From a virus, in the IMG/VR virus record IMGVR_UViG_3300025099_000012, positions 1 through 64,000 of that record: a DNA stretch of 64,000 nt; one strand, given 5' to 3'. The notes below the pieces were generated by a model, which had not been told where the DNA came from, made no database searches, and was given only the letters and a program-made list of their open reading frames with translations. A program made the position numbers and the translations under genes. This document shows, piece after piece, positions 7,379 to 57,733 of this stretch; the first letter of the stretch is position 1; the number at the start of each line of letters is the position of its first letter.

Positions 7379-7709
7379 AATAGTTTAACGAATCAATCAA
7401 TCTATTGAGATACCATTGTGCTTTTTCAGCATCTTCTTTACTATTTGATTTGTGCCACATACGCAGCAAGTACTTCAGTACTTGAGCTTGCAAGAAACCT
7501 TGCTTACAGGTTGGAGCTTTATCAATAGCATCCTCGATTACTTCTATTGCTTCATGTCGCCCTGCTGTGTAATGAGCAGGACTGTTGACCATATCAGTGT
7601 TTACAGGATCGGAATAATCCCAAACAGATAATTTGTTATTGCTAAACCCAGAAACATAATCACCATTGCTAAAAAAGCTATTCTTTTCGTTCATGAGTTT
7701 GTCTCGCAT
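7377..7709 (-). CDS. DUF3310 family protein (T7 gp1.7-related)
   Basis: DMVNSPAHY..EAIEVI..KYLLR..K..EDAEKAQWYL. Confidence 0.8.
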   Translation of the reverse strand: MRDKLMNEKNSFFSNGDYVSGFSNNKLSVWDYSDPVNTDMVNSPAHYTAGRHEAIEVIEDAIDKAPTCKQGFLQAQVLKYLLRMWHKSNSKEDAEKAQWYLNRLIDSLNY

Positions 7710-15870: not shown

Positions 15871-16149
15871 ATGGAATTTTCGACAGAGCAGCAATTGTTC
15901 CTGGCGATTCGCAGCCTCGACACAAAGCTCGACAGCGTGCTTCGTCGTCTCAACTCAGAAGAACAAGCAGAGTGGCTAGACACTAAAGACACTTGCTCGA
16001 TGCTTGGTTGCACCGACCGTCACCTCCGCAACTTGATGGCAGAGGGCACCATCGCTGGTGACTGCATCCGTAATGTCGGCACCATCAAACGTGCTCGTTA
16101 CAAGTTTCACCGCAGCAAGGTTATGAGTCAGTACCTCAAGCGCGTTTGA
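15871..16149 (+). CDS. xis: excisionase-like HTH protein
   Basis: EWLDTKDTCSMLGCTDRHLRNL (MerR/HTH_17-like), convergent with integrase. Confidence 0.65.
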   Translation: MEFSTEQQLFLAIRSLDTKLDSVLRRLNSEEQAEWLDTKDTCSMLGCTDRHLRNLMAEGTIAGDCIRNVGTIKRARYKFHRSKVMSQYLKRV

Positions 16150-17245
16150 ACTTGTCGCGCTGCTTTTCCCTCAGTGCACGCATGTTTTTCTTGTTGATCC
16201 ACAGGTGGTAGTGCTTTCTGTGTGTCGTTTCTGAGTGACCCATCAGCCTTGCAGCAGTGCTGATCTCTATCCCCTGCACTAGCGATCGAATCGCATAAGC
16301 GTGACGCAGGTTGTACAGCGGCCTGTGCTTGAGATTGTTACGTTCCATGTAATCGGAGTACTGCCTGGAAACGTTCAAGCGGTGGCAGGTGGGCTTGTGT
16401 ATCTCACATAGGTTCAGCTCCTTGATCCATTCTTCTGGCAACGCCCAAGCTTCACGCGAGTAAGGCTTGCCCTTGGTTTTGTAAGTCATCAGATTGATTA
16501 CGTCATCCTCGAACTCGACGCTCAGTAATTCGCTGGGCCTGGTGCCAAAGGCCATGCTCATGCCATGCACCCATTTCCAACGTGGATCTTCGATGCTGCT
16601 CCAAATCGCTAGCAATTCCTCATCACTAGGAATGTCCCGCTCAGTGAGCTGAGAAATTGTGTAGCCCTTCATCGCGTCGAACAGTGGCTGCTTATCCCAC
16701 TTCAATCCCATGTGATTAAGGGTGACTGAGACGATCGAACCGAAGTTTTTCCGACTGCTAGGCGACTCAATGTCCTTAATCACCTGGCAGATCGCCTCTA
16801 GATCAGCAGATTCATAGAACTTGCTGAACAGGCTGATCGTCGGTTTGTACTTAGCGGTGTAGATGCCCGCGCCTGTCTTGGGCTTGTCTGGGTAATAGGC
16901 ATCGAAGCGTGCCTCGATTGCCTGGCACAGCTCTGAAAACAGGATCGAATCACGTTGAGCACTGGTTTTCTTTGCAGTGATCTTGTCTTTGCTCCAGTTG
17001 CTCCAGCTGAAAGTGCCCATCGAAAGCTCCTCGTCCAAGCGGAACGCCAGCTCTTTGGCCTTATCAGGTGTACTTAAATCGCTGGCCCTCAGACCTGTCG
17101 GAATTTGCTGCTGTTTACGCTTGCTCGGCTCCGTTTTGCAGGGCAGTGTGGCGACTAAGTACACAGCCTGTCGATCAGGCAGGGTTTTGATAGCGCAACG
17201 GTCCAGCTTCTTATTGAGGAACGTGACCCAATTTCTGTCCATCAC
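16136..17245 (-). CDS. int: tyrosine integrase
   Basis: GTRPSEL, LRHAYAIR, LMGHS, HRKHY catalytic residues. Confidence 0.92.
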   Translation of the reverse strand: MMDRNWVTFLNKKLDRCAIKTLPDRQAVYLVATLPCKTEPSKRKQQQIPTGLRASDLSTPDKAKELAFRLDEELSMGTFSWSNWSKDKITAKKTSAQRDSILFSELCQAIEARFDAYYPDKPKTGAGIYTAKYKPTISLFSKFYESADLEAICQVIKDIESPSSRKNFGSIVSVTLNHMGLKWDKQPLFDAMKGYTISQLTERDIPSDEELLAIWSSIEDPRWKWVHGMSMAFGTRPSELLSVEFEDDVINLMTYKTKGKPYSREAWALPEEWIKELNLCEIHKPTCHRLNVSRQYSDYMERNNLKHRPLYNLRHAYAIRSLVQGIEISTAARLMGHSETTHRKHYHLWINKKNMRALREKQRDKFKRA

Positions 17246-35984: not shown

Positions 35985-36926
35985 TTAAAGATACTCGCTT
36001 ACACTATTGGACTGTTCTCGTAGATTTTTAAGAGCTTTATTTTCTAGAGTTCTGACTCGATCACGGCTCATGTTCAACATTTGTCCAATTGCAGTCATGG
36101 ACATTGGTTCTAGTATTTCTTCCCCAATCCCATATCGCATACTAATTACTGCAGCCTGCATTTCAGGTAGATCTTGAATGAGCTCACGAATGTCTTCCTT
36201 AATGAATTGTTGTTCTAGCAGCATCTCAGGTAATTGTGTTTTATCTTCTAGTAGATCTATTAGAGCGGTATCTCGGTTCTCTCCAATTTTTATTTCAAGT
36301 GATGTTGGTTGCCGAGCTTTACACATCAAATCTTTAATGTCATCAACAGACAGGTTGAGGTATTCAGACAACTCAAATACGTTTGGTAGTTGACCATTGA
36401 TTTGACTTAGTTCACGCTGGGCTTTCTTAAGTTTGTTGAGGTTCTCAGTAACATGGATCGGTAAACGAATCGCCCTCGATTTTTCAGCGATAGCGCGAGT
36501 GATCCCTTGACGGATCCACCAGTAGGCGTAAGTAGAAAACTTGTAACCACGACCAGGATCAAACTTCTCCACGCCACGGACCAAGCCAATGGTACCTTCC
36601 TGGATAATATCCAATAGGTCCATGTTGCGCTTAGTATATTTTTTGGCGACTGAAACAACAAGCCGGAGGTTTGCTGTAACCATTTTGTCTTTTGCCTTTT
36701 CACCATCTCTAATTTGCTTACGAAGTTCCTTGTAAGGAATGTCCATTACTTGAGAAAGATCTTTTGTATCGTCTAGTGCTAACTCTTCTTTGATCGCTTT
36801 AATTTCCATTAGACGTTGTACATTTCTACCTAGCAGGATTTCTTCGTCATGCTGAAGTAAGGGAATTCTTCCAATGTCACGAAGATATGCACGGACAGAA
36901 TCTCCAGTACTCTTTGTAGATGCCAT
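35985..36926 (-). CDS. RpoD-family (group 2-like) RNA polymerase sigma factor
   Basis: DSVRAYLRDIGRIPLL, ANLRLVVSVAKKY, FSTYAYWWIRQGITR, region 4 HTH; no region 1.1. Confidence 0.95.
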   Translation of the reverse strand: MASTKSTGDSVRAYLRDIGRIPLLQHDEEILLGRNVQRLMEIKAIKEELALDDTKDLSQVMDIPYKELRKQIRDGEKAKDKMVTANLRLVVSVAKKYTKRNMDLLDIIQEGTIGLVRGVEKFDPGRGYKFSTYAYWWIRQGITRAIAEKSRAIRLPIHVTENLNKLKKAQRELSQINGQLPNVFELSEYLNLSVDDIKDLMCKARQPTSLEIKIGENRDTALIDLLEDKTQLPEMLLEQQFIKEDIRELIQDLPEMQAAVISMRYGIGEEILEPMSMTAIGQMLNMSRDRVRTLENKALKNLREQSNSVSEYL

Positions 36927-52435: not shown

Positions 52436-53479
52436 TTATATTCCCAATAACCGTGTAAAGTAATTGCTGTTTATATCACTCTTGATAGGTACTCCCGTTA
52501 TGTTTTCTGCTAGCTGTTGCATTGCACTATTATTCATTAAAGCTTTGTAGTCAATAGGATCGGACTGATTAAATGCATCTGCATAGTTTGTTGTAGACGG
52601 AGCAGGCATATCTTTGATTATTGGTTTTATGTTGGGATTTTTGTAAGAATTGATTACTGCGTTTGTTGCTTCATCTTTAAATTCCTGTGCTTGTGGAATG
52701 ATACGCACATCTGGTTCGCCTGATCCATCTACATCTACTTCTACACTTCCACCTTTGTTCCCATGAATTGCATCAAACTTTGCTGGATTGAAATCCTCAC
52801 CCTTGCTAACATCTTGATTCATTACTCTGTAGTCGCTCATTAGGTCCCTTCGATCTTGAGCTTTTTCTTTTGCAACACCTTTTGTATATTCTTTGTATGC
52901 CAAAGCAGGGTTTTGTTGTGCCCATATTGCTAGATTCTCTCCATTCTTTTGACCTTTGAAATAGTCTTGCATTGCATCTTTGTTTGCTTCACCCGCTTTA
53001 AAGTTAGATGCATATTGCTCAGTAGCGTTTGGGTCTAACCGAGGACCTTTCGATAGAGGAGGTGCATCATTTAGATCTGGATCTGGATCTGGATCTGGAT
53101 CTGGATCTGGTGTGTCAACCGTTGTTTTAAAACTCTTCATCAGTGGAGTTATTGTCTTTGGCGTGAACACTGCATTGTTCCCTTGCTCTAACCCATACCA
53201 CGTGGTACCGCCTAATTGAATGGTGTTAGGTACATAGCCTTCTTTTTCCAAAAAATAATTGTCAGCATCTTGGAATTTTACATCTTTAACTAAAACTGCT
53301 GGCTTATTGTTCAAAACTGTTGAGGTTCCATCAAACCTGCCTCCAGTTTGCCCCTGCAATCCCGTAAATTTTGATCCAGGTGTCATTAATTTAGCAGTAA
53401 CCGCTTTTTGTAAAGCAACCTGTGCTTTTTTCCGAGCACTATTTGCACTTGTTGTTCTTCTTCTATTACTTGCGGGCAT
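52436..53479 (-). CDS. hypothetical protein with PD-repeat linker
   Basis: 347 aa, first gene of the minus-strand block. Confidence 0.6.
   Translation of the reverse strand: MPASNRRRTTSANSARKKAQVALQKAVTAKLMTPGSKFTGLQGQTGGRFDGTSTVLNNKPAVLVKDVKFQDADNYFLEKEGYVPNTIQLGGTTWYGLEQGNNAVFTPKTITPLMKSFKTTVDTPDPDPDPDPDPDLNDAPPLSKGPRLDPNATEQYASNFKAGEANKDAMQDYFKGQKNGENLAIWAQQNPALAYKEYTKGVAKEKAQDRRDLMSDYRVMNQDVSKGEDFNPAKFDAIHGNKGGSVEVDVDGSGEPDVRIIPQAQEFKDEATNAVINSYKNPNIKPIIKDMPAPSTTNYADAFNQSDPIDYKALMNNSAMQQLAENITGVPIKSDINSNYFTRLLGI
53075..53110. repeat. hexanucleotide tandem repeat (ATCTGG)6
   Basis: Encodes Pro-Asp repeat on - strand. Confidence 0.9.
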
Positions 53480-53879: not shown

Positions 53880-54060
53880 ACAAGTTTTACATGTGATTTT
53901 TCTTTTGATTTAACTTCTGTTAAACAGAAGGATTCAACTCAAGTTAACAACAGTTAATTTTACACAAGATGTTTCACATTTGTTTAACTTATGTTGTAAC
54001 AGTTGAGTTCTTACACATGTAACGTTCACTTAACAGAAGTATAACTTTCGTTTATACATC
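53880..54060. other. AT-rich non-coding region with palindromes (candidate origin/terminus)
   Basis: CTTCTGTT-A-AACAGAAG 53914-53930; ACTTCTGTTAA vs TTAACAGAAGT (54030); TTACACATGTAA; at divergence of - and + gene blocks. Confidence 0.4.
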
Positions 54061-54181
54061 TGTCGTTGACGTATGTGTATTCATTGATGACTCATGTCTC
54101 ACCTCGTAGAGATGTCATCATTCCCCCTCAATTCAATTACCGAACACACTCACTCACGCCTATCGGCGTGTCTATTAGTTA

Positions 54182-54415
54182 GTGTTCTTTGCTCGTTCTG
54201 TCGTGCTCGCTGTTTTCTCCGCCTCGTTCCTCGTTGGCTTTGGCTTGGCTTTCGCTCCTCGTCGCTCCGTCTTCTGTGAGGCTCCCTCTGGTACCCCTGG
54301 CGTCTGCGCTTCTCGCGTGGCTTTGCCTCTGCTTCCGTTCGTCTTCGCCTTTTGGTGGCTGCGTCTTGCTCCTCGCGGTTGCTCGGTGTTCGTTCTTTGA
54401 GGGCTTTGCCCTCTG
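54182..54415 (+). other. adenine-depleted tract
   Basis: 234 nt with A only at 54279, 54293, 54400. Confidence 0.95.
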
Positions 54416-54475
54416 AACACATTTAACTCGCTGACTCGCGAGTCTATTCATTAGTGTTCTTTTTATATAACAGCC

Positions 54476-57526: not shown

Positions 57527-57733
57527 CTGCGGCTGTAGATATAAATGCTCCATATATAGAAACAAGCAATGATCGTATTTGATCAAACTACCATCATCCT
57601 CGCAATCATTGGCATGATTGGGCTCCTCTCCACAGGAGTTGTCCTTACAACTGCCTTCAAGCGTAGACCTTTGAGTTAGCAACACTGGCGCTTATCAGCG
57701 CCTGTATTTATTTATGTCCTTTGGATATTTTCC

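Follow-up and report, generated by a model that had tools for sequence, protein, structure and literature searches.

We find that an adenine-poor tract of 234 nt at the head of the early region of a viral genome is almost certainly a conserved 65-codon gene for a small membrane protein, which sits within an early cassette (the first one here) and is under purifying selection at both the protein and the nucleotide level. Selection acts against adenine throughout the sense strand of the unit, and it does so independently of the selection on the protein.

The stretch of DNA that we analyzed (the window, 64,000 nt) covers the first 64 kb of a viral record of 82.3 kb, which encodes terminase, virion proteins, DNA polymerase I, and a primase-helicase, as well as psbA, transaldolase (talC), part of ribonucleotide reductase (RNR), MazG, and ThyX. 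Since psbA and talC are carried, the virus is, judging from its gene content, a marine cyanophage related to Synechococcus phage S-EIVl, the nearest isolate (44% identity over a 753-aa virion protein); the sequencing runs that hold the phage are marine. Neither a base-depleted tract nor a homologue of the gene was found in S-EIVl (KJ410740), and a nucleotide search of a phage collection with the 3 kb around the tract gave no match.

The adenine-poor tract and its gene

Between positions 54182 and 54415 we count 92 T, 76 C, 63 G, and 3 A, the adenines being at 54279, 54293, and 54400, in exact agreement with the counts and coordinates of the preliminary description of this DNA. A 234-nt segment of the genome contains 63 A on average, and the next-lowest value away from the tract is 23; the corresponding minima for C, G, and T are 23, 23, and 42, with no A-like trough for these bases. 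The chance of finding 3 A in 234 nt is ~1e-27 per segment by a binomial estimate (pA = 0.27). The share of T is 39% in the tract versus 31% in the genome, and that of C in the tract is 32%. The only repeat reported by Tandem Repeats Finder is a 23-nt TTGGCT micro-repeat (54234 to 54256), on which basis a simple-repeat reading was rejected, and ATG is absent from 54182 to 54415. The tract had been described as a nonrepetitive, ATG-free sequence placed between two junction elements, and this was borne out in all respects.

The tract is not peculiar to one assembly. A DNA contig from run X1 (which may be the source sample) is identical to positions 54179 to 54462 with zero differences, and the gene occurs with equal composition in 28 other contigs from several studies; an assembly artifact was rejected on these two grounds. 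A contig from metatranscriptome run X19 spans 54148 to 54309, which is weak evidence for an effect at the RNA level, coming from the assembled contigs of one metatranscriptome library. In 427 kb of related phage DNA, strongly base-depleted tracts were confined to this gene family and a remodeled cassette in locus L009. The composition is kept in relatives: full-length relatives contain 2 to 5 A per ~200 nt, while their flanks contain 22 to 27% A. An ordinary conserved protein with normal A content had been named as the finding that would speak against a special composition; the relatives do encode a conserved protein, but the depletion is conserved along with it.

The many open frames in the tract are, as had been proposed, a by-product of its composition, because one strand lacks A and the other lacks T. 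Which of them is coding could be deduced from comparison with relatives. A back-translated search retrieved a homologue in viral contig L007, bracketed by hairpin-plus-GTGTTC elements. The two sequences differ at 38 of 198 nt, distributed 9/9/20 over the codon positions, and dN/dS is 0.26 in the sense frame and ~2 in the other two frames of that strand. When pN/pS was pooled over 13 distinct full-length sequences, the sense frame gave 0.29, the antisense frame that shares its wobble positions 0.41, and the other four frames at least 1.39 and up to ~1.8. The frame of TTG 54189, one of two put forward as coding in the preliminary description, has a pN/pS of 1.76 and was abandoned. The other, running from GTG 54182, is open to the TGA at 54398 to 54400 and specifies two hydrophobic segments joined by a loop; this frame is the correct one, but its start has to be moved to the GTG at 54203 in that frame, opposite which relatives have ATG or TTG. 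Because this column reads GTG in eight, ATG in three, and TTG in two of the 13 sequences, GTG 54203 is the start codon and the product has 65 residues. The TGA stop falls in one column in all full-length members. The coordinates of the gene and its surroundings are collected in Table 1.

Table 1. Features of the tract and the adjoining region (positions in the window)
Feature	Position	Strand	Description and basis
Last gene of leftward virion cluster	52436-53479	-	
Divergent control region	53880..54142	.	Separates leftward virion cluster from rightward early cassettes; AT-rich, TTAAC-type repeats; from sequence and ORF map
Junction element 1	54143..54191	+	AACAC box, GC hairpin 54155-54170 (CACGCC tatc GGCGTG), 11-nt spacer, GTGTTCTTT box; repeat family D1/D3/D6, hairpin-plus-box scan, terminator-like match
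A-free 5' leader	54182..54202	+	GTGTTC box to start codon
Coding sequence	54203..54400	+	65 codons plus TGA; start GTG 54203, stop TGA 54398-54400; two predicted hydrophobic helices
Stop-codon hairpin	54399..54413	+	GAGGGC ttt GCCCTC; overlaps stop codon; read from sequence
Junction element 2	54414..54461	+	TGAACAC box, hairpin, GTGTTCTT box; heads next early gene (ATG 54476)

We considered whether the plus-strand ORF could itself be a by-product, with the real gene on the minus strand (a T-free sequence for a protein rich in Arg, Lys, and Glu) or the product a structured noncoding RNA (ncRNA), and regard this as extremely improbable. All minus-strand frames are open, and the ORF starting at ATG 54422 would encode a 90-aa basic protein; however, this frame has a dN/dS of 1.66 in the comparison with L007 and a pooled pN/pS of 1.56, and the Arg-rich ORF, which is not conserved, was rejected. 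The low value of the wobble-sharing antisense frame could be cited in its favor, but that frame has no possible start codon inside, since the strand is T-free, and it scores worse than the sense frame, which in addition has start codon covariation, a conserved stop, and the orientation of its neighbors. As for an RNA, the plus strand folds somewhat better than shuffled sequences (z = -2.9), but the tract has no match in Rfam even at E <= 10, and its RNAalifold consensus of -16.4 kcal/mol includes a covariation term of just -1.1, with 2 of 35 pairs compensatory. Given the lack of an Rfam match, the weak consensus fold, the lack of conserved structure, and clear codon-phase selection, the U/C/G-rich ncRNA suggested earlier was discarded.

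The conserved core of the protein reads SVFAE.PSG.PGVCASRV.LPL.PFVFAFWWLRL.PRGCSVF, with Glu26, Cys35, and Cys60 invariant; the first hydrophobic segment is missing in some relatives, and L013 and L032 have a short form of the gene. AlphaFold2 places helices at residues 2 to 17 and 43 to 55 with low confidence (pLDDT 55). The family is small: a protein search returned eight homologous metagenome proteins of 82 to 91% identity, a search with the homologue alignment added 28 further loci (2 viral and 26 from marine metagenomes), and a profile search hit only 7 clusters among 1.84 billion representatives. Ten family members had no match in Pfam (best E value, 0.64), and no PHROG match was found. 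The superinfection-exclusion proteins of the T4 Imm type are early small membrane proteins of phages. The predicted product resembles them in being short, in its early placement at the start of the early region, and in having two hydrophobic segments; in Pfam and PHROGs, however, it showed no similarity to Imm, holins, or any other family. Our guess is that it acts at the envelope, perhaps in superinfection exclusion.

The hairpin that overlaps the stop codon is kept in L014, L015, L016, L018, L019, L022, and L023 and in the remodeled cassette of L009. Its role may be to shield the message at its 3' end or to terminate transcription.

Adenine avoidance at the nucleotide level

The only adenines of the coding sequence are those in GAG (Glu26), ACC (Thr31), and the TGA stop. 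Given the codon usage of the phage itself, an avoidable A would be expected in 20.3 of the 64 codons, and we observed none (P ~10^-11.8). The pooled pS of 0.46 implies that silent sites have been turned over and are near saturation; at the 56 synonymously variable positions, T, C, G, and A occupy the third base 52, 44, 30, and 2 times, respectively. Those adenines that remain across the family are demanded by the protein or by the stop (GAG, ACC, CAT, GAC, and TGA). Most retained adenines stand in a GA dinucleotide (GAG, TGA, GAC, and GGA). Glu is always encoded by GAG and never by GAA, while the phage uses GAA in 66% of its Glu codons.

Avoidance extends to the choice of residues and beyond the coding sequence. 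Ten amino acids can be encoded without A, and they make up 62 of 64 residues versus 54% of the phage proteome: Leu, Val, and Phe are used in place of Ile and Met, Arg in place of Lys, and Ser in place of Thr. The start codon is GTG or TTG in 10 of the 13 sequences, and five neighboring cassettes in the window start with ATG. The 21-nt untranslated leader contains no A, versus 4 to 6 in the same stretch of five other cassettes, and it varies among relatives only by exchange of T, C, and G. Codon-level explanations alone fail, because depletion runs through the whole unit, starting at the GTGTTC box and ending at the stop-codon hairpin.

The composition could in principle follow from the protein, and two comparisons address this. 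Divergent family members contain 7 to 15 A and use Ile, Met, Lys, Thr, His, Asn, and Tyr, which implies that the protein tolerates residues that require A; and elsewhere in this early region, a gene for a predicted membrane peptide (57569 to 57679) has 24% A. It follows that neither hydrophobicity nor protein function forces the composition. Together with the counts above, this demonstrates that adenine is kept off the sense strand of the unit by selection that is independent of the selection on the protein.

A phage or bacterial gene from which one base has been purged was not found in the literature, nor was any prokaryotic counterpart of the unit. The nearest published case is that of the no-A tracts in the signal sequence coding regions of vertebrate secretory mRNAs. 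In those tracts, A is depleted through hydrophobic residues, a preference for Leu over Ile and for Arg over Lys, and A-free synonyms (PMC2100149), a pattern that the authors attribute to a demand on the nucleotide sequence; silent mutations to A abolish function (Palazzo et al. 2007, PMC2100149). The tract described here is likewise a hydrophobic coding region depleted of A by both amino acid and synonymous choice. [quoted passage not shown]

Here, then, one base is kept out of a whole gene of a bacterial virus, leader, start, and stop included, across lineages whose silent sites are saturated. Such a purge implies that some cellular process tells this message (or its template) from others at the level of single adenines. 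The cost signals how strong the pressure is: the protein is held to about 10 amino acids and its start codon is mostly a weak one. The unit is also an unusually clean test object, because it is only ~220 nt long and residues that require A are tolerated in the divergent forms of its protein.

Candidate causes of the adenine exclusion

We tentatively favor an account that joins the gene and the purge to a mechanism acting on RNA. Its causal element, RNA-level avoidance of targets for A-dependent enzymes, is possible though doubtful when taken as the reason for the purge. The constraint would act on the RNA, where each A in a U-rich message would present a target to an enzyme that depends on A. 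The most concrete candidate would be host RNase E, with its A/U clamp, and defense RNases that require A would be further candidates. Cyanobacterial RNase E has a cleavage signature of A at -3/-4 and U at +2 (PMC8682795); the enzyme has single-stranded RNA rich in A and U as its substrate and is transcribed more strongly in cyanophage infection (PMC3113571; PMC9692554). Having structured ends and lacking internal sites, the first early message might stay translatable throughout infection, and the surviving message would supply the small membrane protein.

Several features of the tract bear on RNA-level target avoidance. The motif ANNNT occurs once, versus a mean of 17.5 per 234 nt, and ACA does not occur. 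In offering no ACA and a single ANNNT, the tract is comparable to messages free of cleavage sites, such as the MazF-resistant ACA-less mRNAs; those are for the most part engineered, and what they lack is a trinucleotide rather than a whole base. Avoidance this absolute is more in keeping with a one-hit target than with a graded composition signal. Among the A-free synonyms, those ending in T, C, and G number 26, 26, and 9, versus 35, 16, and 10 expected from the phage norm, and this shift from T to C fits the avoidance of A/U-rich sites, not a maximizing of U. Against this reading, the A of the invariant GAG is retained in an A-N-N-N-U context, and the message is still 39% U. Neighboring early genes have normal A content, so any benefit must be specific to the product of this gene. 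In cyanophage infection, the known protection of some messages from RNase E works via long antisense RNAs, not via composition (PMC3113571); if RNA protection is the correct reading, the tract would represent a composition-based route beside the antisense one.

A related reading, which we consider rather unlikely, is that an adenine-less first message is a form of counter-defense, by which host enzymes that act on A in RNA (decay endonucleases, toxin RNases, and A-modifying or editing enzymes) are evaded before any protein of the invader has been made; T in the transcribed strand could be the target instead. If it holds, this cyanophage family would be a compact instance, of 65 codons and in a photosynthetic host.

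Two other causes appear to us improbable, one no more so than the other. In one, the A-poor and U-rich composition acts as a zip code that targets the message to the membrane without translation: a 65-residue protein is too short for cotranslational capture by SRP and would in this way be made at the translocon immediately after infection. The product is a predicted small membrane protein, T is enriched relative to the genome, and the three-level signature is shared with the adenine-poor signal sequence regions of vertebrates, where silent A mutations destroy an RNA-level function (PMC2100149). In E. coli, membrane binding of the mRNA for the small membrane protein YohP increases with U content and decreases with added A or C (PMC10066597); yet the silent sites of the phage gene favor C over T relative to the phage norm, and C stands at 32%. 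A graded signal would also predict depletion, not near-total exclusion over saturated silent sites; the phage's other membrane peptide gene has a normal A content, and no such depletion is reported for bacterial signal sequences (PMC2100149). In the other, what matters is the template strand, which, being T-free, would escape thymine-directed damage or modification (UV dipyrimidine lesions or thymidine ADP-ribosylation) and so keep the first gene always transcribable. A single template lesion is enough to stop RNA polymerase, the phage infects cyanobacteria in sunlit water, T-containing dipyrimidine steps in the template number 4 versus a genome mean of 46 per 234 nt, and the depleted zone takes in untranslated parts. 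However, template CC (sense GG) is not avoided (13 versus 16.7 +/- 3 expected), and dipyrimidine steps in the sense strand reach the highest count of the genome (120, versus a maximum of 115 in the sampled segments). Proofing 200 nt of 82 kb against lesions would be useful only if the product had to precede repair, and nothing suggests so. Nor does anything point to modified T or A, because the thymidylate pathway is ordinary (ThyX and dCMP deaminase) and PurZ is lacking: PF00709, used to look for a PurZ-type adenylosuccinate synthetase, had no match in the 82-kb record and matched 14 of 14 control genomes. A modified-base (Z-genome) cause was rejected on this evidence.

Still less credence is due to an effect on transcription itself, in which a first transcript that needs almost no ATP, or one that avoids sigma-dependent pausing at -10-like TAnnnT sequences, would be completed fast or in dark cells. 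No other cassette lies between the unit and the control region, an A-free sense strand rules out TAnnnT on both strands, and the phage uses the host RNA polymerase with its own sigma factor; a search for a T7-type RNA polymerase, run without a positive control, found none in the phage. But three A remain and ATP is still needed, translation uses ATP and GTP regardless, and cellular ATP is far above the requirement of elongation; near-total exclusion along 200 nt, and not just near the promoter, would be left unexplained. Avoidance of restriction sites, which had been raised as a driver, is unsupported because 234 nt cannot protect an 82-kb genome and a GGTACC palindrome is present at 54290 to 54295. 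This hexamer is the only A/T-containing palindrome of the tract and arose via a lineage-specific Thr codon, ACC, where relatives have Cys (TGC). The remaining probability falls to a cause other than the readings considered here.

The early region and the movement of the cassette

Virion genes run leftward from ~53.5 kb and small early genes rightward from 54.1 kb, and the control region between them (53880 to 54142) is colinear and conserved in relatives L006 and L009. Its sigma-70-like matches are weak and confined to the minus strand. From 53880 to 54060, it is AT-rich and contains repeated TTAAC/GTTAA motifs that are conserved in L006 and could be operators or a replication origin. A complete sigma-70-family factor (regions 1.2, 2, 3, and 4) is encoded on the minus strand at 35985 to 36926, within the leftward virion gene cluster, an arrangement suggestive of a role in redirecting the host RNA polymerase to late transcription.

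A hairpin and a GTGTTCTTT box precede each early gene, and a (T)GAACAC box often follows the gene. Approximately 15 junction elements lie between 54143 and 61884 and are built to one plan, with a (T)GAACAC box, then a GC hairpin, a spacer of 11 to 12 nt, and a GTGTTCTTT box. The hairpins vary in sequence while their pairing is kept, and the TGA of the TGAACAC box often ends the reading frame of the gene upstream. Being reverse complements, the outer boxes could form a lower stem, by analogy with an RNase III site of phage T7. In the elements we found no consistent -35/-10 match and no recognizable sigma-70 promoter.

The gene is the first to third cassette past the divergence point in all 10 long loci examined: first in the window, L014, L025, L029, and L030 and second or third in L007/L012 and L013/L034. 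It is bracketed by junction elements in the window, in L007, and in other loci. Within the region examined in relative L006, the gene is missing, so it appears to be dispensable; a single element there replaces element 1, the gene, and element 2, and the insertion or deletion that separates L006 from the window extends from one GAACAC box to the next. We conclude with high confidence that the gene is carried as a mobile early cassette.

This arrangement is reminiscent of the PeSL cassettes of T4-like phages, small early ORFs flanked by a stem-loop and a motif that are gained and lost at the motifs (Arbiol 2010, PMC2839356; Comeau 2014, PMC4122927). Here too, the cassette is present in the window, absent from L006, remodeled in L009, and second in L007, with breakpoints at GAACAC boxes. 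On the other hand, the lineage is S-EIVl-like, the motif is another one, there is no recognizable sigma-70 promoter, and PeSLs have no base depletion. By analogy, the likeness would explain how the gene moves, not its composition.

The remodeled cassette of L009 (positions 7500 to 7650, minus strand of the locus) occupies the first-cassette position and contains an A-poor ORF of 39 codons. Its leader, TGA, and GGGCTTTGCCC hairpin are the same as in the window, whereas the middle differs, retaining only an RWWRL motif. The cassette has the look of a copy that is decaying or has been rearranged internally.

Some further observations were made elsewhere in the record. The psbA gene, for the D1 protein of photosystem II, lies at genome positions 68766 to 69848 (L040 4766 to 5848), and the transaldolase gene lies at 70532 to 71200 (L040 6532 to 7200). 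A 243-aa ORF at 66827 to 67558 (L040 2827 to 3558) has a subthreshold match to the ADP-ribosyltransferase exoenzyme family PF03496 (E value, 2.8e-4; 20.7 bits, with a cutoff of 23.4) and no PHROG match. On the minus strand at 16136 to 17245, a locally GC-rich ORF of 369 aa gave a weak, subthreshold match to phage integrase (E value, 0.0018). Finally, the 347-aa gene that ends the leftward cluster contains a short tandem (ATCTGG)n array at 53069 to 53110.
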